From NCBI RefSeq assembly GCF_055900595.2, contig NZ_CM148325.1: a DNA stretch of 64,000 nt. One strand, 5' to 3'. Shown here in pieces: positions 5,398 to 13,395 of this stretch; within the stretch, counting starts at the first letter, position 1, and every line of letters starts with the position of its first letter. A program made the translations under genes and the position numbers. The notes under the pieces were generated by a model that made no database searches, was not told the DNA's origin, and saw only the letters and a program-made list of their open reading frames with translations.

Positions 5398-6036
5398 TTA
5401 AATATCTTTTTGAATTTTAAAGCATACTCCCAATATGCAAGATAGATCATCCAGCATAATTGAAGGGTAGCGAGGATTCGTGGGGACTAAAAGAATATCC
5501 GGCCCTTCTATCTCCAGTTTGCGAATGACAGGCGTTGTGGTCCCTTTGGGTAAGGCAAGGACAATATTTCCTGGTTGTACGATTCGATCGGGATCAACAA
5601 AAACTGTTGAACCATTTGGGATGGAAACTCCACCACCAGATGTCGACATACTGTCACTCTCTAGAACAACAGCAAAGGTATTGGCCGGGATTTCTCCGAC
5701 AAGCTGCACACAAGAGGTTATTGAGGAATTTTTCATATAATCACTCCAGCTTGCTGCCTGCTGAAGTGATAGTAGCGGAACCGTTTTTATCGGCGGTAAA
5801 GATAGATCAAGCGAATCACCTGTATTTAACTCTCCTCCATTAAGAAGCCAATTTTCGTTTACTTTCAATATCTTTGCCAGTGAGCTTATGTAACGCGAGG
5901 ACGGCGCTCCTCCACCGTTCATCCATTGACTTACGGAGCCTTTTGATGCGCCAGTGGCATTGACAAGGTCTTTGCCTTTCAAGTTTAGCGCATGCATACG
6001 TTGGGTTATGCGTTCAGATATTGTTTGCTTGTTCAT
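5398..6036 (-). CDS. CI-like prophage repressor (HTH plus S24 LexA-like autopeptidase domain)
   Basis: 212 aa; N-terminal HTH region (LKGKDLVNATGASKGSVSQWMNG), C-terminal S24-like region; divergent from the cro-like gene. Confidence 0.85.
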   Translation of the reverse strand: MNKQTISERITQRMHALNLKGKDLVNATGASKGSVSQWMNGGGAPSSRYISSLAKILKVNENWLLNGGELNTGDSLDLSLPPIKTVPLLSLQQAASWSDYMKNSSITSCVQLVGEIPANTFAVVLESDSMSTSGGGVSIPNGSTVFVDPDRIVQPGNIVLALPKGTTTPVIRKLEIEGPDILLVPTNPRYPSIMLDDLSCILGVCFKIQKDI

Positions 6037-6054
6037 GTTTTGATTTTAAAACAC
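6034..6054. promoter_or_regulatory. Candidate right operator: ATGTTTT-N6-AAAACA palindrome
   Basis: Same half-sites as 5312-5333, located between cI and cro. Confidence 0.3.
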
Positions 6055-6069
6055 AGATGGTTTTGTTTC

Positions 6070-6099
6070 TTGACTTTCTTTGGTTTTGATTATTAAACT
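6070..6099 (+). promoter_or_regulatory. Candidate PR promoter (-35 TTGACT, -10 TAAACT, 18-bp spacer)
   Basis: Sigma70-like hexamers upstream of the cro-like gene with GGAG RBS at 6118-6121. Confidence 0.4.
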
Positions 6100-6128
6100 T
6101 TTGGCGTTCAGTTTTATGGAGCGAATCA

Positions 6129-6370
6129 TGAAAAAATCAGAAGTATTAGGCTATTTTGGCGGAGTTGTTAAAACAGCCGCCGCTCTAGGAACGTCAAAAA
6201 CCACAGTCAGCATGTGGGGGGAAGACGTTCCGTGGAAATGGGCGTTGCTAATTCAGGCAGTCACTGCCGGGGCGCTCAAATATGAGTTACACATACCGAC
6301 GGTTGTCATTCCCGGTTCTGATCATAATCCGCCTTCTAACCAAGGGGGGATTCATGAAAATCAAGCATGA
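6129..6370 (+). CDS. Cro-like HTH regulator
   Basis: MKKSEVLGYFGGVVKTAAALGTSKTTVSMWGEDVPW... small HTH protein divergent from cI. Confidence 0.75.
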
Positions 6371-6779
6371 ACACATCCGCATGGCGATGAATGCCTGGGC
6401 ACGTCCTGATGGCGAAAAAGTTCCGGCAGCTGGAATAACCCAGGCTTATTTTGAGTTGGGTATGACGTTTCCTAAACTGTACGACGACAGCCATCCGGAA
6501 GCCCTGGCTCGCAATACCCAGAAAATTTTCCGCTGGATAGAGAAAGACACCCCTGATGCAGTTGAAAAAATTCAGGCGTTGTTACCAGCGATCGAAAAGG
6601 CAATGCCACCTTTGCTGGTGGCCAGAATGCGCAGCCACAGTTCAGCTTATTTTCGGGAGCTGGTGGAGACGCGGGAGCGACTGGTGAGAGACGCTGATGA
6701 TTTTGTCGCAGTGGCAATCGCCGGTTTCAATCAGATGAACCGTGGTGGCCCGGCTGGAAATGCTGTGGCAGTACATTGA
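6354..6779 (+). CDS. CII-like / YdaT-family regulatory protein
   Basis: 141 aa starting MKIKHEHIRMAMNAWARPDGEK with a G-rich RBS; overlaps the end of cro. Confidence 0.6.
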   Translation: MKIKHEHIRMAMNAWARPDGEKVPAAGITQAYFELGMTFPKLYDDSHPEALARNTQKIFRWIEKDTPDAVEKIQALLPAIEKAMPPLLVARMRSHSSAYFRELVETRERLVRDADDFVAVAIAGFNQMNRGGPAGNAVAVH

Positions 6780-6850
6780 CTGACAATAGCCATATCGAAT
6801 CGCTTCCGGCAACTCGTGAGTAAAAAGATTCGGTATCAGAAGAGGTGAGT

Positions 6851-7921
6851 ATGGCTAACGCCTGGCTCAGATTATGGCATGACATGCCAAATGACCCTAA
6901 GTGGCGAACAATTGCCAGGGTGTCAGGGCAGCCAATTGCAACAGTGATGGCAGTGTATATCCACCTCCTGGTGAGCGCGTCACGAAATGTCACGCGAGGT
7001 CACATTGATGTCACGACAGAAGATTTGGCAAGTGCGCTCGACGTGACAGAAGAGGTAATTGATTCAATTTTGCAGACGATGCAGGGGCGGGTACTTGATG
7101 GTGATTTAATCACTGGATGGGAAAAACGCCAGGTGCTGAAAGAGGACAACGGTAATATTTCGCAAACCGCAAAATCTCCGGCAGAGCGCAAGAGGGCGCA
7201 GCGAGAGAGGGAAAGAAAGCGGGAACAAAATGGCGATTGTCACGGCGAGTCACGAAATGTCACGCACATGTCACGACGAGTCACGACAGATAAAGATACA
7301 GATAAAGATACAGATCAAGAAGATCAAAACACTATGGTCCATGGCGTAAAAAACGCCGCGAACCAGGCAGGGGATGTTCAGACCGTCAATCTTGGTCAGC
7401 CAGCAGGCACGACACCGGAAGCCGATTCAGCGTATGCGCTGAAAGCCGATTCGGGCGCTGTGCAGCAGGTGATGACCGCAAGGCAGGAGCAATCACACCA
7501 ACTTCAGCAGCCTGAAGCCGATTCCGCCATTCAGCGGGAAGCCGATCGGGTAGTCCCGGAAAACACCGGGCAGCCTGTGGGACGAGTGGATTATCCTGAT
7601 GTGTTCGAACAGGTCTGGCGGGAATACCCGTTGCGTGCCGGGGCAAACCCGAAGAAATCCGCTTTCAGTGCCTGGAAGGCCAGATTACGCGAGGGGGTGC
7701 CACCAGAGGCCATGCTGGATGGCGTGAGGCGTTACGCAAGATACCTGGCGGCTACCGGGAAAACGGGAACGGAATTTGTTCAGCGAGCGACGACGTTTTT
7801 TGGACCGGACCGGAATTTTGAAAACCCCTGGTTGCTCCCGGTAAGCGGTACGAACAACCAGCGTTGTGTGAATCATATTTCTGAACCGGATACCGAAATT
7901 CCACCGGGCTTCAGGGGGTAA
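6851..7921 (+). CDS. Replication initiation protein (O-like, DUF1376/YdaU-type N-terminus) containing origin iterons
   Basis: N-terminal MANAWLRLWHDMPNDPKWRTIARVSG...; GAGG RBS; two clusters of GTCACG repeats inside the gene. Confidence 0.7.
   Translation: MANAWLRLWHDMPNDPKWRTIARVSGQPIATVMAVYIHLLVSASRNVTRGHIDVTTEDLASALDVTEEVIDSILQTMQGRVLDGDLITGWEKRQVLKEDNGNISQTAKSPAERKRAQRERERKREQNGDCHGESRNVTHMSRRVTTDKDTDKDTDQEDQNTMVHGVKNAANQAGDVQTVNLGQPAGTTPEADSAYALKADSGAVQQVMTARQEQSHQLQQPEADSAIQREADRVVPENTGQPVGRVDYPDVFEQVWREYPLRAGANPKKSAFSAWKARLREGVPPEAMLDGVRRYARYLAATGKTGTEFVQRATTFFGPDRNFENPWLLPVSGTNNQRCVNHISEPDTEIPPGFRG
6979..7019. repeat. Iteron cluster 1 (GTCACG-type repeats at about 10-bp phasing)
   Basis: gtcacgaaatgtcacgcgaggtcacattgatgtcacgacag. 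Confidence 0.7.
7239..7315. repeat. Iteron cluster 2 plus adjacent tandem repeat gataaagataca x2
   Basis: gtcacggcgagtcacgaaatgtcacgcacatgtcacgacgagtcacgacag, then ataaagatacagataaagatacagat; the 16-mer tcacgaaatgtcacgc is shared exactly with cluster 1. Confidence 0.7.
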
Positions 7922-7961
7922 GTGTGTATTTCAGGTCATGAGGTAATTTTCAGGAGGACTT

Positions 7962-8387
7962 GTGGCAAAAGTTTTTACACAAGAAGAGCGAGAAAAAATT
8001 AAGGGGCAGGTTGTTGAACTTGTACGTCTGAGTGGTCGCGAGACGTTACGGGCTCTGGAGGCTAAAACCGGTGCATCAAGGTATTACATAAGCACTCTCG
8101 CCAGAGAGCTGGTTGCCAGCGGCGATGTATACAACTCTGGTTACGGATTATTCCCGTCTGAACAGGCTCGTAAGGACTGGCAAAATGCCCGCAAAAAACT
8201 CTCAAGGGCAAAGCTGAAGAAAAAAACATCTGTGGTTGATCCGGACCTTATCTGGTCATTACCTGACGGAGAAATACGTCGCTACGACAGTCGTCTAAAC
8301 ATAATCTGTCGCGAGTGCCGGAAGAGCGAAGTTATGCAGCGCATACTGGCATTTTATCAGGGAAATGTTTGGTATTTATTGAAATGA
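7962..8387 (+). CDS. Hypothetical phage protein (possible HTH), replication-module position
   Basis: 141-aa ORF with GTG start 4 nt after AGGAGG; no recognisable catalytic motif. Confidence 0.5.
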   Translation: MAKVFTQEEREKIKGQVVELVRLSGRETLRALEAKTGASRYYISTLARELVASGDVYNSGYGLFPSEQARKDWQNARKKLSRAKLKKKTSVVDPDLIWSLPDGEIRRYDSRLNIICRECRKSEVMQRILAFYQGNVWYLLK

Positions 8388-8595
8388 CGAGATTAAAGAG
8401 CATTAGTTCAGATATTAATTGACACTTCGGTTGCATAAGACTAGAACTAGTGTGATTGGCATCTTTGTACCAAAAACGGACATTACAGTGTATGGTTAAT
8501 TCTGCCTGTCAAATAACTTACATTCATCAAATGATCGAAATTATGACTTAGCTCAACAATTAGGTTTAGCATGGGTCATATGACTAGAGTGTAGC

Positions 8596-8612
8596 AACTT
8601 TCTGCTATAATT
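8596..8612 (+). promoter_or_regulatory. Candidate extended -10 promoter (TGcTATAAT)
   Basis: ctgctataat upstream of the KTSC-like gene with AAGGA RBS. Confidence 0.4.
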
Positions 8613-8627
8613 TAATAAGGATAAAAA

Positions 8628-8855
8628 ATGCCAGCTTATGCTAATAAAGGCGGTAATTCGGGTATAGTGTTTTATGAGATTACTCCAGATGCTATCACAG
8701 TACAGTTTAAAGATGGATGGAAATACGTTTACGATTCTACAAAACCAGGGGCTTCAACGGTCTCTAGGATGAAAGAGTTAGCCCAGGCTGGGCATGGGCT
8801 AAATAGTTTTATTAGTAGTGTGGTTAAGAAAAATTTCTCACGTAAATACCTTTAA
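8628..8855 (+). CDS. KTSC-domain-like small protein
   Basis: 75 aa with VFYEITPDAITVQFKDGWKYVY motif; good RBS. Confidence 0.55.
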   Translation: MPAYANKGGNSGIVFYEITPDAITVQFKDGWKYVYDSTKPGASTVSRMKELAQAGHGLNSFISSVVKKNFSRKYL

Positions 8856-9008
8856 TTTTAATTGAGGGTGGGAAGGACTATCACCCTCATAATTCTTCAC
8901 CATTCAATCAAGAGCAATTCAAGGTGATTTGCTCTGTACATAGTCGGTTAGTTAGCACTTCGTAATTTATTGAATAGAAGGCTTTTGGAACAGTATCTTC
9001 ACTCGTGC

Positions 9009-9257
9009 TTATCGCCCAGCAGATTTAGCAAGAATAGTCTCGAGCATTTCTGGTACGTTGCCTTTAGCATTGATAGTTGCTGTTCGGTAAGCTAGTTGAT
9101 TTTTTGAGAGATTGATTCCTGTAAGTGCTTCAATTTCGTTGCAGGCCTTACCCCATTCTACCCAGTTTTCAGACAAAAAAGATTCAAGATGATCCGCAAA
9201 TATAGCAATATCATTAGTAACTGTTGCAGCTGGAATATAGACTATGCGAAAAGCCAT
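9009..9257 (-). CDS. Hypothetical protein (82 aa), possibly Rem-like
   Basis: Clean 82-aa ORF convergent with the KTSC gene; size and position near hok recall Qin rem; no motif recognised. Confidence 0.4.
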   Translation of the reverse strand: MAFRIVYIPAATVTNDIAIFADHLESFLSENWVEWGKACNEIEALTGINLSKNQLAYRTATINAKGNVPEMLETILAKSAGR

Positions 9258-9579
9258 TGGTTGACTACTTCAATGTATCCTGTATCAACAATGAAAATGT
9301 CCGTTCTTCGCTCACAGAATTAGTGCGACAGCTTCGCACCAAGAGCTGACATTGTAATATCCGACAGGCTATTGCCTGTCAGTTAACAGTTACGTGTTAT
9401 AAAAGGTCAGGCGGGATCCTGACTAGGTGTGTTTAAAGAAGTGCTGGTGGTGAGCGGGTGTTGTGTCCAATTTCCACAGAAAAAAATCTGAGAAACTATA
9501 CCCAATAGTTGTATTGAATCACTGACGAGACAGCCTCATATTTATCAGGACTGGTGTACTTCCAATTCAGGAGGTTGTC

Positions 9580-9669
9580 GTGCTGGTTCTCAAATGTGCG
9601 CTAGCTATTGCGGCTGTAATGGCAATTTATTGTCTTGCTGTTGTTCTTACGGATCGCCTTTCTGATTGA
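9580..9669 (+). CDS. Candidate small hydrophobic peptide (29 aa, GTG start)
   Basis: AGGAGG at 9569-9574, 5 nt before GTG; encodes VLVLKCALAIAAVMAIYCLAVVLTDRLSD; absent from the ORF track because of size and GTG start. Confidence 0.35.
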   Translation: MLVLKCALAIAAVMAIYCLAVVLTDRLSD

Positions 9670-9823
9670 TTTTATATTGGCGAGGTGACGTGAGTTAAGT
9701 AGAATTGCTGCGGGTGCTTGAGGCTATCTGCCTCAGGCATGAACACCAACGGCAGATAGAGAAAAGCCCCAGTTAACATTACGCGTCCTGCAAGACGCTT
9801 AACATTAATCTGAGGCCAATTTC

Positions 9824-10036
9824 ATGCTAGACACATGTAGGTTAGCCTCTTACGTGCCGGAAGGCAAGGAGAAGCAGGCTATGAAGCAGCAAAAGGCGAT
9901 GTTAATCGCCCTGATCGTCATCTGTTTAACCGTCATAGTGACGGCACTGGTAACGAGGAAAGACCTCTGCGAGGTACGAATCCGAACCGGCCAGACGGAG
10001 GTCGCTGTCTTCACAGCTTACGAACCTGAGGAGTAA
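9824..10036 (+). CDS. mok: mok-like reading frame overlapping hok
   Basis: 70-aa frame that starts upstream of and reads through hok, as in hok/sok loci. Confidence 0.5.
   Translation: MLDTCRLASYVPEGKEKQAMKQQKAMLIALIVICLTVIVTALVTRKDLCEVRIRTGQTEVAVFTAYEPEE
9881..10036 (+). CDS. hok: Hok/Gef-family type I toxin
   Basis: 51 aa MKQQKAMLIALIVICLTVIVTALVTRKDLCEVRIRTGQTEVAVFTAYEPEE, Hok family (HokD/RelF-like as I recall it). Confidence 0.85.
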   Translation: MKQQKAMLIALIVICLTVIVTALVTRKDLCEVRIRTGQTEVAVFTAYEPEE

Positions 10037-10106
10037 GAGACTAAGCGGGGGAGAAATCCCTCGCCACCTCTGATGAGTCAGGCATCCTCAATGCACCCGC
10101 GCTTAA

Positions 10107-10125
10107 CCCGCTTCGGCGGGTTTTT
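10107..10125 (+). terminator. Rho-independent terminator after hok
   Basis: cccgcttcggcgggttttt. Confidence 0.7.
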
Positions 10126-10140
10126 CTAGCATCTACCTGG

Positions 10141-10170
10141 TTGACAAAGTCGATGTTAAATGGAAATATG
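10141..10170 (+). promoter_or_regulatory. Candidate promoter of the 10203-11959 cassette (TTGACA-N17-AAATAT)
   Basis: Perfect -35 hexamer at 10141-10146, weak -10; a second TTGACA at 10172-10177. Confidence 0.3.
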
Positions 10171-10202
10171 GTTGACACCAAAACAACAAGGATATTACGG
10201 TC

Positions 10203-10817
10203 ATGCAGAATTTATCTCAACAGTTGTTAGAAGCATATGACAAGGAGTGCCGCAAAGAGCTTTCGATCGCGTTAGCACAGGCTTATCTTCATTCGCATAT
10301 GAAGGCAAAAGAGTTTGGTTCTTTTTGGGCTCAAGCACAGTCATATTTGCGCTGGTTTTATGCCGATGCATTGCTTGAGAATGCGGCTAAGCGTGTGGGG
10401 CTGGATTTTGAAGTCGGTAGCAATGCTGCTAAAAATTGTAAACACATTGCGATTCACTCGAACAACTGGAAAATGACGGCACATCATTTATCGGGTAATG
10501 CGCCACTTCCTAAGCAGGCATTGTATAGAGCTGTTTACGCTAATCAAAATTATGAATTGAATTTTGGGGATGAAAATGCCGACTCCCTGGATGGGAGAGC
10601 GTCTGGTGGACATGTTTATATGTTACATGATGGCAGTAATCAGCACTTGTCCAAACTGAATTTAACTGTTCCTTCTTCGGATAATTACGGGATTCTTTAT
10701 ACTGAGTCTTTACCAATTATGACGATGGTAGAAGTTGAAGCAGAAAATGTGGATTCTGAGATTGAAGATAAAATCAAGATTCTTACCGAACAAATAATTA
10801 AATCACAGCAATCATGA
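10203..10817 (+). CDS. Hypothetical protein (204 aa), first gene of a two-gene accessory cassette
   Basis: ORF with AAGGA RBS; no recognisable domain; stop overlaps the start of the next gene (ATGA). Confidence 0.6.
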   Translation: MQNLSQQLLEAYDKECRKELSIALAQAYLHSHMKAKEFGSFWAQAQSYLRWFYADALLENAAKRVGLDFEVGSNAAKNCKHIAIHSNNWKMTAHHLSGNAPLPKQALYRAVYANQNYELNFGDENADSLDGRASGGHVYMLHDGSNQHLSKLNLTVPSSDNYGILYTESLPIMTMVEVEAENVDSEIEDKIKILTEQIIKSQQS

Positions 10818-11959
10818 GCATGAATATCGCACAAACACCATTTACTGATAAATCGTTTAATCCTCGTCGCCTTGAGGAGGCAAGAGAGGCAAAAGGGTTG
10901 ACGATGGCTGAACTTGCCAGAGTGCTCAATATTTCAAGACAAGCTATTTCGTCATTTGAGAAGGGGTTGAAGTCTCCCTCTGCTGATACACTTTCTGCAA
11001 TAGCCAAGGTGTTAGGATTTCCAGAACGATTTTTCTTAGCCTCCAGTGCTTCTCCATCTCTGGAGGGGGCGATTCATTTTAGAAGTCGTTCAACTGCGAC
11101 CAAAAAGGCTCGAGTTACAGGGAAAACACGTGGGCGTTGGGCGGCATTAATATTGGATGAATGTCTAAAATATGCTCAATTACCAGATGTGGTTCTGCCT
11201 GAATTCGATATTATTGATTTTGAGGTTCTGTCTCTATCTGATATTGAGGATATGTCCACCCAATTAAGGCGTTTTTGGGGGTTAGGTGATGGTCCAATAC
11301 TCAATTTAACTAGACTTGTTGAAAATAAAGGAATCGTGGTTTCTCATTTACCTTCTGGTGAGAAAGTTGATGCCTTTTCGTTCTGGCATAATGGGCGGCC
11401 TTTAATTATGTTAGATAGCTCGAAGACGGCTGTTCGCATGCGATTTAGTCTTGCTCATGAACTTGGCCATTTAATTATGCATAGGGCAGTGGAGGATGAC
11501 TACCTGAATGATAAAGAATTATTCGACCTGGTGGAGTTGCAGGCCGATTATTTTGCCTCCAGCTTTTTAATGCCAGCCACCACTTTCGGGCGTGAATTTT
11601 ATAGTCCAAATTTATCAGCGTTAGAACGATTAAAACTACGTTGGATTACATCTATCGGTAGTATTGCCATGAGGAGTCATAGCCTTAAGTTAATCAGCGA
11701 TAATCAGAAAAGCTATATATTTAAGCAATTAGCGCCATTCCATCGTAGGGAGCCGTTAGATGATGCAATCCCAAAAGAAGAGCCTGAGTTACTTAATAAG
11801 TTACTTTTACTTCTTGATAAGCATTCAATCATAAAGGTAACTGAGTTAACTGATATCTTTGCTCTTCCCTTAAATGAGTTATCTGCAATTACACGATTTA
11901 AAGAATCAGATATGATTCATTCTGACAATGTTATTTCATTTACCATAAAACAAAAATAA
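10814..11959 (+). CDS. HTH_XRE - ImmA/IrrE (COG2856, M78-like) zinc metallopeptidase fusion protein
   Basis: N-terminal XRE HTH (LTMAELARVLNISRQAISSFEKG); HEXXH motif HELGHLIMH at 11456-11470 followed by ELQADYFASSFLMP, typical of ImmA/IrrE. Confidence 0.8.
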   Translation: MSMNIAQTPFTDKSFNPRRLEEAREAKGLTMAELARVLNISRQAISSFEKGLKSPSADTLSAIAKVLGFPERFFLASSASPSLEGAIHFRSRSTATKKARVTGKTRGRWAALILDECLKYAQLPDVVLPEFDIIDFEVLSLSDIEDMSTQLRRFWGLGDGPILNLTRLVENKGIVVSHLPSGEKVDAFSFWHNGRPLIMLDSSKTAVRMRFSLAHELGHLIMHRAVEDDYLNDKELFDLVELQADYFASSFLMPATTFGREFYSPNLSALERLKLRWITSIGSIAMRSHSLKLISDNQKSYIFKQLAPFHRREPLDDAIPKEEPELLNKLLLLLDKHSIIKVTELTDIFALPLNELSAITRFKESDMIHSDNVISFTIKQK

Positions 11960-11994: not shown

Positions 11995-12065
11995 TACGTA
12001 TTCTGGTTTACAATCCACAGGCCAGCCTGAACAACTGGCACCTGCTGCGCCAGCAGAGACAACCG

Positions 12066-12344
12066 ATGGCGCACGATACCAAATTACACAATTCTGATGA
12101 TTCTGCCGTCTTTGCCAGCAGGCACGGGCGGCGCTCTCACGCATTTAAATCTGATTGGTACCAGCATCCCCCATGCACTGAAGAACAGGCCGAATGGCTG
12201 ATTCATTCTTACCGCAGGCGCGGGTTCGAGGTTAAGAAAGCTCTCAGTCTCGACTATCGGCACTGGATAATCTCTGTCAGGCTGCCTTATTCCGAACGCC
12301 CACCACGTGCGTCCCGCACTTTCCAGCAACGGATCTGGAGGTAA
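12066..12344 (+). CDS. Hypothetical protein (92 aa), possibly a frame-separated N-terminal piece of the DUF968 gene
   Basis: Protein-like ORF whose 3' end overlaps the DUF968 ORF in another frame. Confidence 0.35.
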   Translation: MAHDTKLHNSDDSAVFASRHGRRSHAFKSDWYQHPPCTEEQAEWLIHSYRRRGFEVKKALSLDYRHWIISVRLPYSERPPRASRTFQQRIWR

Positions 12345-13395
12345 CGTGCGGGTATTACTTAGACCTGTTCTGGTGCCAGAGCTTGGGCTGGTGGTCCTTA
12401 AACTAGGCCGTGAATCCATGCCGGTATTCCACAATACCCGGGTACTGGTGGAGCCGGAACCGAAAAGCATGCGTAATCTGCCGTCCGGGGTCGTTCCTGC
12501 CGTTCGCCAGCCGCTGGTGGAAGACAAAACATTGCTGCCGTTTTTCAGTAACGCACGGGTGATTCGTGCTGCTGGTGGTGCTGGTGCATTGTCTGACTGG
12601 CTGTTGCGCCATATTAAATCCTGCCAGTGGCCGCACGGCGATTATCATCACAGCGAAACCGTCATTCACCGTTATGGTACCGGCGCAATGGTGTTGTGCT
12701 GGCACTGCGACAACCAACTGCGTGACCAGACATCCGAATCACTCGAGCAACTTGCTCATCAAAACCTGTCAGCATGGATGATTGACGTCATCGGTCACGC
12801 AATAAGCGGTACGCAGGAGCGTGAATTATCTCTGGCTGAATTATCCTGGTGGGCGCTCCGCAATCAGGTGGCGGACGCGCTACCGGAAGCGGTATTACGT
12901 CGTTCGCTGGGATTACCAGCGGAAAAAATCTGCTCGGTGTACCGCGAGAGCGACATCGTACCGGGAGAGCAGACCGCCACCAGCATATTGAAACAACGCA
13001 CAAAAAATCTTGCACCGTTGCCTTACGCCCACCAGCAACAAAAACCACCACAGGAAAAGACGGTGGTAAGCATCACCGTTGATCCAGAGTCTCCGGAATC
13101 TTTCATGAAGCTGCCTAAACGTCACCGTTGGGTTAAGGAGAAATACACACGCTGGGTTAAGACACAGCCGTGTGCTTGCTGCGGGATGCCAGCCGACGAT
13201 CCGCATCATCTGATTGGTCACGGGCAGGGCGGAATGGGAACCAAAGCACATGATCTCTTTGTGTTGCCTTTGTGCAGAAAGCATCACGACGAGTTGCATA
13301 CGGATACCGTGGTATTTGAAGAGAAGTATGGCTCCCAACTGGAGCTGATTTTTCGATTTATCGATCGCGCGCTGGCAATTGGTGTGCTGGCCTAA
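12307..13395 (+). CDS. DUF968-family protein with C-terminal HNH-like motif (YdfU-like); start uncertain
   Basis: C-terminal [17 protein letters not shown]...HHDELH zinc-finger/HNH-like motif; located just upstream of Q. Confidence 0.65.

Follow-up and report, generated by a model that had tools for sequence, protein, structure and literature searches.

Morons, in the concept of Hendrix and Juhala, are autonomous promoter-gene-terminator units carried by prophages, with bor and lom of lambda and units of HK97 as examples. The old-type exclusion genes of P2 prophages are another known system, as are the defence hotspots of phages and their satellites, a concept reportedly set out by Rousset et al. 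in 2022. At the protein level, the closest described relative of the gene analysed here is the KTSC domain (PF13619), a stand-alone domain of ~70 residues with a crystal structure from Methanolobus vulcani (7x8c) and with a central YxY motif that is conserved in the Pfam family. The 7x8c protein is reported to bind single-stranded DNA, which we treat as a lead only. KTSC domains have been proposed, as opinion only, to be RNA-binding (PMC7824862) or DNA-binding (PMC9503650), and our literature searches found neither an established biochemical function nor functional studies of KTSC.

We analysed a stretch of 64,000 nucleotides (the window) in which a 75-aa ORF lies within a Rac/Qin-like lambdoid prophage of E. 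coli. The initial annotation had described this ORF as a KTSC-like moron with an extended -10 promoter of its own, transcribed separately from the replication genes. The overall explanation that we consider probable is a mobile single-gene cassette of KTSC fold that was orphaned by the deletion of an OLD nuclease and that would be transcribed on its own in the lysogen and act by binding nucleic acid.

The 75-aa gene family and its fold

The gene occupies 8628-8855 on the plus strand and encodes a protein of 8.3 kDa and pI 9.65 (WP_001557863.1; MPAYANKGGNSGIVFYEITPDAITVQFK). The elements described in the initial annotation, namely TGcTATAAT at 8603-8611, the ribosome-binding site AAGGA at 8617-8621, the ATG at 8628 and the 75-codon frame to 8855, are all present at the sites claimed for them. 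The Shine-Dalgarno sequence lies 6 nt before the ATG, and its AGG core is shared by nearly all of the 12 upstream regions aligned; only Pseudomonas parafulva departs from it (AAGCA). A word-index search retrieved 29 homologues from Enterobacterales with 65-95% identity, almost all exactly 75 aa long, and an exhaustive profile search retrieved 1,676 clusters (50% identity) at E<=1e-3, most of them stand-alone proteins of ~75 aa, with 707 clusters at E<=1e-10. Length and motifs (Y4, F27, Y33xY35, A52 and G55xGL58) are conserved in the family. Pairwise comparison with six genera gives dN/dS values of 0.09-0.2, and the small gene is under strong purifying selection across genera. Within E. coli, the near identity of the copies leaves too little variation for selection to be measured. 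The frame at 8628-8855 is clearly not a chance ORF but a real gene.

A genome scan that used the closer-family alignment as query placed the family at 53 genome loci in Proteobacteria, Bacteroidota, Chloroflexota, Nitrospirota, Elusimicrobiota, Patescibacteria and other groups. The family is also found on plasmids of Thermus, Legionella, Arcobacter and Rhizobium. In the literature searched, neither WP_001557863.1 nor the related accessions of the locus are mentioned in any paper.

The label "KTSC-like" holds at the level of the fold only. By sequence it finds no support, as the 75-aa protein has no Pfam match even at E<=10 (and so misses the gathering threshold of PF13619) and zero matches in NCBIfam and PADLOC, while 11 of 73 diverse relatives touch PF13619 weakly, with a best E of 0.0099. 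The AlphaFold model is confident (pLDDT 90.9) and runs through three strands and two helices to a short C-terminal strand, and Foldseek agrees with a KTSC fold for this model (TM 0.55/0.58). Y33-V-Y35 is invariant in the 73 diverse members and, in the diverse profile, is in register with Y-Q-Y of 7x8c, which that profile reaches in a PDB search at E 0.26, non-significant by itself; the close-family profile returned only noise against PDB sequences. Both the small protein and the KTSC domain of PF13619 and 7x8c are thus ~70-residue stand-alone domains with a central YxY, but the small protein is only 11% identical to 7x8c. Its family differs further from PF13619 in an invariant G-x-G-L-N-S-[YF]-I and an N-terminal M-P-x-Y-A-N extension of its own, and is a separate, large family outside the models of Pfam, NCBIfam and PADLOC. 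We therefore treat the 75-aa protein, on the strength of its predicted structure, as a distant and unmodelled branch of the KTSC fold, outside PF13619. As the Pfam threshold is missed, any transfer of KTSC properties to this branch is a long extrapolation. The protein's pI is compatible with nucleic-acid binding, and a putative binding of nucleic acid, as proposed for KTSC domains, is the activity that the cassette may contribute.

Among viral structures, the top matches of the model in BFVD are four proteins of phiKZ-like jumbo phages that contain the same domain (TM 0.91-0.94, 34-41% identity), followed by annotated phage KTSC-domain proteins at probabilities of 0.98-1.0. In phiKZ gp303 and 201phi2-1 gp455, the domain lies at approximately residues 69-136 of virion proteins of 627-768 aa, whose presence in the virion is verified by mass spectrometry. 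These proteins are head-associated and proteolytically processed like inner-body proteins (PMC10449902). The jumbo phages thus use the domain as an N-terminal module of a large head protein, whereas in the window it is a free-standing protein of 75 aa. Inner-body-like processing is compatible with an association of the jumbo-phage protein with DNA, and is no proof of it.

These comparisons bear on annotation: WP_001557863.1 can be described as a KTSC-fold small protein. The family of ~1,700 clusters (50% identity) extends over many phyla, plasmids, prophages and virion proteins of jumbo phages and has no family model; the small gene is a prophage accessory gene whose large family merits one.

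The cargo slot and the lost OLD nuclease

The prophage gene order around the small gene runs from a LexA/cI-like repressor (5398-6036, minus strand), followed by Cro-like and YdaT-like genes, through a replication initiator (6845-7921; phrog_3729) to a DUF977 replication-region gene (7962-8387) on the same strand as the 75-aa ORF. To the right lie a hok/sok locus (sok RNA at 9712-9886, hok ORF to 10036) and an RmrT/RmrA-like pair (10203-11959), with DUF968 next. Between the DUF977 gene and hok/sok (hokD) is a variable cargo slot at 8468-9626. Its boundaries are defined by alignment to E. coli AR_0089, in which homology to the backbone ends at 8467 and restarts at 9627, the same flanks there enclosing different cargo, a 2.8-kb SEC-C-domain gene. 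An empty slot, with its flanks directly joined, is found in none of 5,426 E. coli genomes, which indicates a permanently occupied, variable hotspot; some part of the small-gene cassette is present in only 49 of these 5,426 genomes. The slot has a GC content of 35-41% versus ~50% in the flanking phage genes (0.35-0.40 at 8300-9200, 0.47-0.60 at 6200-8300 and 0.54 at 12050-13100), so that its base composition, as in morons, is distinct from that of the surrounding phage genes.

The slot contains more than the small gene. A block at 8464-9317 combines the KTSC-like gene with the remains of an OLD-nuclease module and carries a 1.72-kb internal deletion at 9237/9238. In blastn, window positions 8464-9238 align to positions 5836-6616 of a Yersinia enterocolitica island (L004) at 89.6% identity, and positions 9237-9317 align to 8340-8420, after a gap of 1,723 bp in the island. 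On the minus strand, ORF 9009-9257 (WP_001557861.1, annotated elsewhere as a hypothetical protein) is the remnant of an OLD-family (ATPase and TOPRIM) nuclease. Only its last 75 codons (9012-9236) are OLD-derived; tblastn aligns them at 95% identity with the end of the 626-aa Yersinia protein (residues 552-626). The adjoining segment at 9238-9317, also read on the minus strand, is the former promoter-side region of the deleted gene and corresponds to the sequence 73-153 nt upstream of the OLD start in the Yersinia island. The intact 626-aa protein matches PADLOC Old (7e-56) and the Pfam families AAA_15, AAA_21 and OLD-like_TOPRIM; ORF 9009-9257 lacks this OLD-family architecture of an N-terminal ATPase and a C-terminal TOPRIM domain and is a pseudogene fragment. 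WP_001557861.1 is accordingly better annotated as an OLD nuclease fragment than as a gene.

The intact form of this arrangement still exists in E. coli. Strains SCU-113 and N61 carry, in the same DUF977-to-hokD slot, an intact convergent gene for an "ATP-dependent nuclease" (WP_044866928.1), and the small protein of SCU-113 is identical to that of the window. These slots show that the window is a deletion derivative, and the deleted form is the commoner state (~30 of 33 full-length matches). We also considered the arrangement without OLD as the ancestral one; this is contradicted by the OLD 3' end and 5' flank that the window has kept. The alignments demonstrate the slot boundaries and the OLD deletion, and the small gene probably entered the slot as part of one AT-rich block with a convergent OLD nuclease gene. 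After the arrival of this block in the Rac/Qin-like slot, the 1.7-kb deletion took OLD and left the small gene behind as an intact orphan. With the OLD gene of the window destroyed, the active cargo of the slot is now hok/sok together with the RmrT/RmrA-like pair further right. More generally, the DUF977-hokD interval of Rac/Qin-like prophages can be regarded as a hotspot for cargo and defence genes.

Transcription signals around the small gene

The extended -10 motif TGcTATAAT (TGCTATAAT; 8603-8611, plus strand), read directly in the sequence, ends 16 nt before the ATG. Extended -10 promoters can function without a -35 element in E. coli, and the absence of a -35 element is the reason why our promoter scan did not list this site. 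Its score of 9.0 is the second-best total within 260 nt upstream of the ATG. Compared with the best sites of random 263-nt segments of this DNA, it ranks near the 90th percentile, on a sigma-70 position weight matrix (PWM) that is approximate, with frequencies based on the Harley-Reynolds compilation. The motif TGNTATAAT occurs three times in the window against 2.07 expected, which is chance frequency. Since the -10 element ends at 8611, transcription would start at approximately 8618, inside the Shine-Dalgarno sequence, and leave a leader of ~10 nt, which is possible but atypical. A small inverted repeat that is itself conserved, GCAGC-N-GCTGC, overlaps the motif with its 3' arm.

The distribution of the motif is narrow. 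TGCTATAAT is found in every E. coli copy in the lambdoid slot, with OLD intact or deleted alike (~33 copies examined). The intact, 95%-identical gene of Yersinia has TGCAGTAAT in its place, the copy of E. coli MS15052 has TGCAATAAT, and nothing like TGcTATAAT is found at the same site in Pectobacterium, Buttiauxella, Kosakonia, Erwinia, Enterobacter, Lelliottia and Citrobacter. The -10 series AGTAAT (Yersinia), AATAAT and TATAAT is a natural example of the gain of promoter-like sequence by point mutation.

That TGcTATAAT drives the expression of a lone moron in the lysogen is a reading that we regard as possible but doubtful. It can draw on a perfect TGnTATAAT shared by all of the E. coli lambdoid-slot copies and on the rank of this site among upstream sequences. 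It conflicts with the chance frequency of the motif, with a start that falls inside the Shine-Dalgarno sequence, with the lack of conservation beside an intact gene in Yersinia and the other genera, and with the origin of the small gene in a two-gene block with OLD rather than as a lone insertion. Of the promoter proposed in the initial annotation, the motif itself stands; its restriction to the E. coli lineage and its start inside the Shine-Dalgarno sequence make it at best a recently gained second promoter, and not that of the family.

For the orphaned cassette, conservation points instead to a region further upstream. The PWM scan places a candidate sigma-70 promoter, A, at 8496-8524 on the plus strand (TTAATT at 8496-8501, a 17-nt spacer and TACATT at 8519-8524). 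This predicted promoter lies 103 nt before the ATG, and its -10-like hexamer recurs upstream of the gene at a distance of 99-104 nt from the ATG in six loci and of 110 nt in Lelliottia. The hexamer reads TACATT in the window, Yersinia and Pectobacterium, TATATT in Kosakonia, TACAAT in P. versatile and TAAATT in Enterobacter ENT03; promoter A scores at approximately the 85-90th percentile of background and is poorly kept in Citrobacter. Immediately downstream, at 8541-8584 on the plus strand, is the most conserved non-coding block, composed of TTATGAyyTnGCTCAAnAA (8541-8559) and CATATaAC (8577-8584), with a 10-bp palindrome, GTCATATGAC, at 8575-8584 inside it. A second candidate promoter, B, overlaps this block at 8543-8572 on the plus strand (ATGACT at 8543-8548, an 18-nt spacer and TAGCAT at 8567-8572) and would start transcription at the conserved CAT.

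The block at 8541-8584 is invariant or nearly so in 8-9 orthologous loci of different genera, despite a coding identity of 65-80%. This conservation suggests a candidate promoter, operator or 5' UTR element. All three candidate promoters (8496-8524, 8543-8572 and 8603-8611) score at or below roughly the 90th percentile of background, and for each there are orthologues in which it is not conserved. We conclude from the alignments that the control region of the family probably lies at 8496-8584. RNAalifold found only a 5-bp stem with negligible covariation in the 5' region, and we therefore do not claim an RNA element; an Rfam search over 8200-10300 likewise returned nothing in the conserved 5' region, its only matches being sok and a sub-threshold isrK-like match.

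A hairpin follows the stop codon. At 8863-8889 on the plus strand, a GC-rich 9-bp stem with a 9-nt loop is followed by AUAAUUCUU, a weak U-tract, and has a folding energy of -13.9 kcal/mol (z -1.9). Our terminator scan missed this hairpin because its loop exceeds 8 nt. When orthologues were folded individually, hairpins with other stem sequences were found at the same position in 6 of 8 (z -1.8 to -4.5), and in Citrobacter a post-stop hairpin is recognised by eye. The hairpin at 8863-8889 may be taken as a weak intrinsic-terminator-like element. Read in order, the cassette consists of the conserved and probably regulatory 5' region, the Shine-Dalgarno sequence, the coding frame and the post-stop hairpin, and it is a horizontally mobile and probably functional unit.

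The separation from the replication genes proposed in the initial annotation finds no support on the upstream side. The ORF is on the same strand as the DUF977 gene, and no terminator-like site is predicted in the interval that follows the stop codon of that gene (8387); read-through from the early-right operon is therefore expected during lytic growth. The cassette would have its own transcription in the lysogen from the region at 8496-8584, with the newly acquired TGcTATAAT as an additional predicted source in E. coli only, and lytic growth would add the predicted read-through.

Mobility, neighbours and comparison with morons and defence hotspots

Relatives of the cassette recur in other hotspots and unrelated elements. 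E. coli MS15052 carries a 93%-identical cassette behind the tail-fibre genes of another prophage, adjoining a 592-aa dCTP-deaminase defence gene (PADLOC 5e-127). Intact relatives are found in a CP4-57-like island of Yersinia, convergent with OLD; in a P4-like integrase-primase element of Pectobacterium; upstream of PDC-S06 and Ogr/Delta in Kosakonia; between gpV and gpS of a P2-like prophage in Erwinia, adjoining EcoRII/Dcm; and in Buttiauxella as part of an islet of two genes flanked by roxA and pepT. In Citrobacter, the relative is convergent to an OLD-DUF2130 operon, with identities of 79% for OLD and 80% for the KTSC-like protein, and the two genes have co-diverged. In more distant taxa, a dCTP deaminase gene follows the small gene on the same strand after a 187-nt gap in Pseudomonas parafulva (PADLOC 5e-142), and an Old homologue follows it on the same strand after a 108-nt gap in Desulfacinum (3.5e-56).

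The copy in MS15052 is dead, with codon 7 turned into a stop, a frameshift from a 1-bp deletion, and a damaged -10 and Shine-Dalgarno sequence. As this copy is a pseudogene, the small gene is dispensable. A functionless hitch-hiker, the relic of a degraded defence module whose decay is pending, would fit the broken MS15052 copy and the deletion of the neighbouring OLD gene, and the near identity of the E. coli copies leaves room for it by making selection within the species unmeasurable. We nonetheless think such a relic unlikely, given the strong purifying selection on the small gene across genera, the identity of the protein in the deleted lineage to that of the OLD-bearing SCU-113, and the direction of change in the E. 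coli lineage, where promoter-like sequence was gained rather than lost.

The neighbours raise another possibility, that the small protein is a partner (a regulator, an antitoxin-like brake or a sensor) of an adjacent single-gene defence effector and, in the window, the leftover of such a two-component system. Old is its direct neighbour, convergent in Yersinia and E. coli and on the same strand in Desulfacinum; the gene also lies beside dCTP deaminase in MS15052 and P. parafulva, beside PDC-S06 in Kosakonia and beside EcoRII/Dcm in Erwinia. The 101 neighbours at 43 loci include further defence matches (PDC-S32, CARF-HEPN, ThsB, PDC-S60, a cyclase and LmuB/mad3-type ATPases), and the co-divergence in Citrobacter points the same way. 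Ordinary neighbours are also many, among them HSP70, aconitase, transporters and two-component systems. All-vs-all clustering of the neighbours found no shared partner family outside a syntenic Paraburkholderia group, which rules out a universal partner gene. An obligatory presence of the small gene with OLD was likewise rejected, most members of the OLD clade (77-79% identity) being found in SNF2-DUF4391-OLD-DUF2130-methylase operons without it.

On this evidence, we give little credence to a dedicated partner. The defence partners are structurally unrelated, which makes a single direct mechanism unlikely, and many loci have housekeeping or otherwise unrelated neighbours. In the slot lineage of the window, in Yersinia and in Citrobacter the two genes are convergent and not co-transcribed. 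The small gene has stayed intact after the loss of OLD in ~30 E. coli genomes and has decayed beside an intact deaminase gene, and it is included in no PADLOC model. The gene's link to mobile elements and defence islands seems genuine, if loose, and in our preferred reading of an orphaned mobile cassette the small protein would be an accessory factor of such elements and islands rather than an obligate subunit of one system. As its gene recurs next to Old, dCTP deaminase, PDC-S06 and restriction-modification genes, the protein is a reasonable subject for defence and counter-defence assays. A bolder proposal, improbable as it stands, is that the ~75-aa KTSC-fold family is an unrecognised and widely mobile accessory of anti-phage defence islands, a small nucleic-acid-binding protein that repeatedly accompanies single-gene effectors such as OLD nucleases and dCTP deaminases and in some way tunes or complements them, and that phiKZ-like jumbo phages use the same module in a processed, possibly injected head protein.

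Among known systems, the old-type exclusion genes of P2 and the P2/P4 defence hotspots share with this locus an OLD-family nuclease (PADLOC Old), which was the original companion of the small gene in its block. The settings of the relatives, between gpV and gpS and beside Ogr/Delta or a P4-like primase-integrase, are also those of P2/P4 hotspots. Unlike the P2 old-type systems, the small gene does not encode a recognised defence protein.

The cassette resembles phage morons in that it is small, AT-rich and inserted in a conserved phage gene order, has its own predicted promoter region and hairpin, is present or absent among related prophages and recurs in unrelated phages. It differs from them in its location within a multi-cargo hotspot rather than as a single insertion between otherwise adjacent genes, in its arrival paired with a defence gene, and in an expression from the lysogen that is here only predicted. 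The moron reading of the initial annotation thus holds for the AT-rich composition, the variable slot, the conserved 5' region with its Shine-Dalgarno sequence and hairpin, and the recurrence at unrelated sites, but not for a lone gene, as the cassette arrived with OLD. "Moron" is a fair structural description of the gene, but it overlooks the origin of the unit as what survives, one half, of an OLD-nuclease cargo block that has degraded within a prophage defence hotspot.

The OLD-family remnant beside the small gene

The minus-strand ORF next to the small KTSC-fold gene (window 9009-9257, 82 aa) has RefSeq relatives annotated as hypothetical protein (WP_001557861.1). Despite this label, the ORF is what is left of the gene for an OLD-family nuclease of 626 aa, namely its 75 C-terminal codons. 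The remainder of the OLD gene was taken out by a clean 1.72-kb internal deletion with its junction at window 9237/9238. E. coli SCU-113 and N61 still have an intact OLD gene in this slot.

Cargo and flanks of the DUF977-hokD slot

In a different prophage, that of E. coli MS15052 (locus L002, 5001-7402), the cassette is present as a decayed copy 3' of the tail-fibre genes, where it adjoins a gene for a 592-aa P-loop and deaminase protein (PADLOC dCTPase, 5e-127). The locus also keeps some 20 codons from the 3' end of OLD, which implies that the deaminase gene took the place of OLD in an older KTSC-OLD block. In the collinear prophage of E. coli AR_0089, the DUF977-hokD slot (locus L003, 4081-7056) holds a 932-aa SEC-C-motif protein with weak PADLOC matches to LmuA and E2-like; this protein may represent another kind of defence cargo.

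On its right the slot is flanked by backbone in the form of a hok/sok type I toxin-antitoxin locus (window 9712-10036), comprising a sok RNA at 9712-9886 (Rfam RF01794, 115.8 bits) and a Hok/Gef ORF ending at 10036. Directly after hok, window 10045-10126 gives a sub-threshold Rfam match to the Hfq-binding sRNA isrK (26.1 bits, where the gathering score is 50; E 0.0046). Just right of hokD, the overlapping RmrT/RmrA-like genes (window 10203-11959; PADLOC 7.5e-10 for RmrT and 5.5e-102 for RmrA, the latter protein combining HTH_3 and Peptidase_M78/ImmA-IrrE domains) are a toxin-antitoxin-type defence pair. This position is taken by a Doc-family toxin or by nothing in other strains (L070 and L071).

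Upstream elements of the small gene

A perfect 10-bp palindrome, GTCATATGAC (window 8575-8584), overlaps the conserved CATATaAC element; in the other genera the sequence is not palindromic. The phage backbone has a perfect TTGACA shortly 3' of the DUF977 stop (window 8419-8424); its -10, TAGAAC, 17 nt downstream, is poor.

Relatives in jumbo phages and in multi-gene loci

Virion proteins of phiKZ-like jumbo phages, verified as such by mass spectrometry, embed the KTSC-fold domain near the N-terminus (34-41% identity, TM 0.91-0.94), and the domain is present in 53 Pseudomonas phage records. One of these proteins is gp455 of Pseudomonas phage 201phi2-1 (L068 2297-4603, domain at 2501-2704), a homologue of phiKZ gp303; gp303 is reported to undergo proteolytic processing, like inner-body proteins (PMC10449902).

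The clade of the deleted OLD gene extends across Proteobacteria at 77-81% identity (loci L072-L082 and L085). Its usual setting there is a conserved operon of SNF2 helicase, DUF4391, OLD, DUF2130 and an N6/N4 methylase, preceded in one locus by BrxR. This operon resembles a defence system of several genes, and the E. coli and Yersinia version appears to have retained OLD alone from it.
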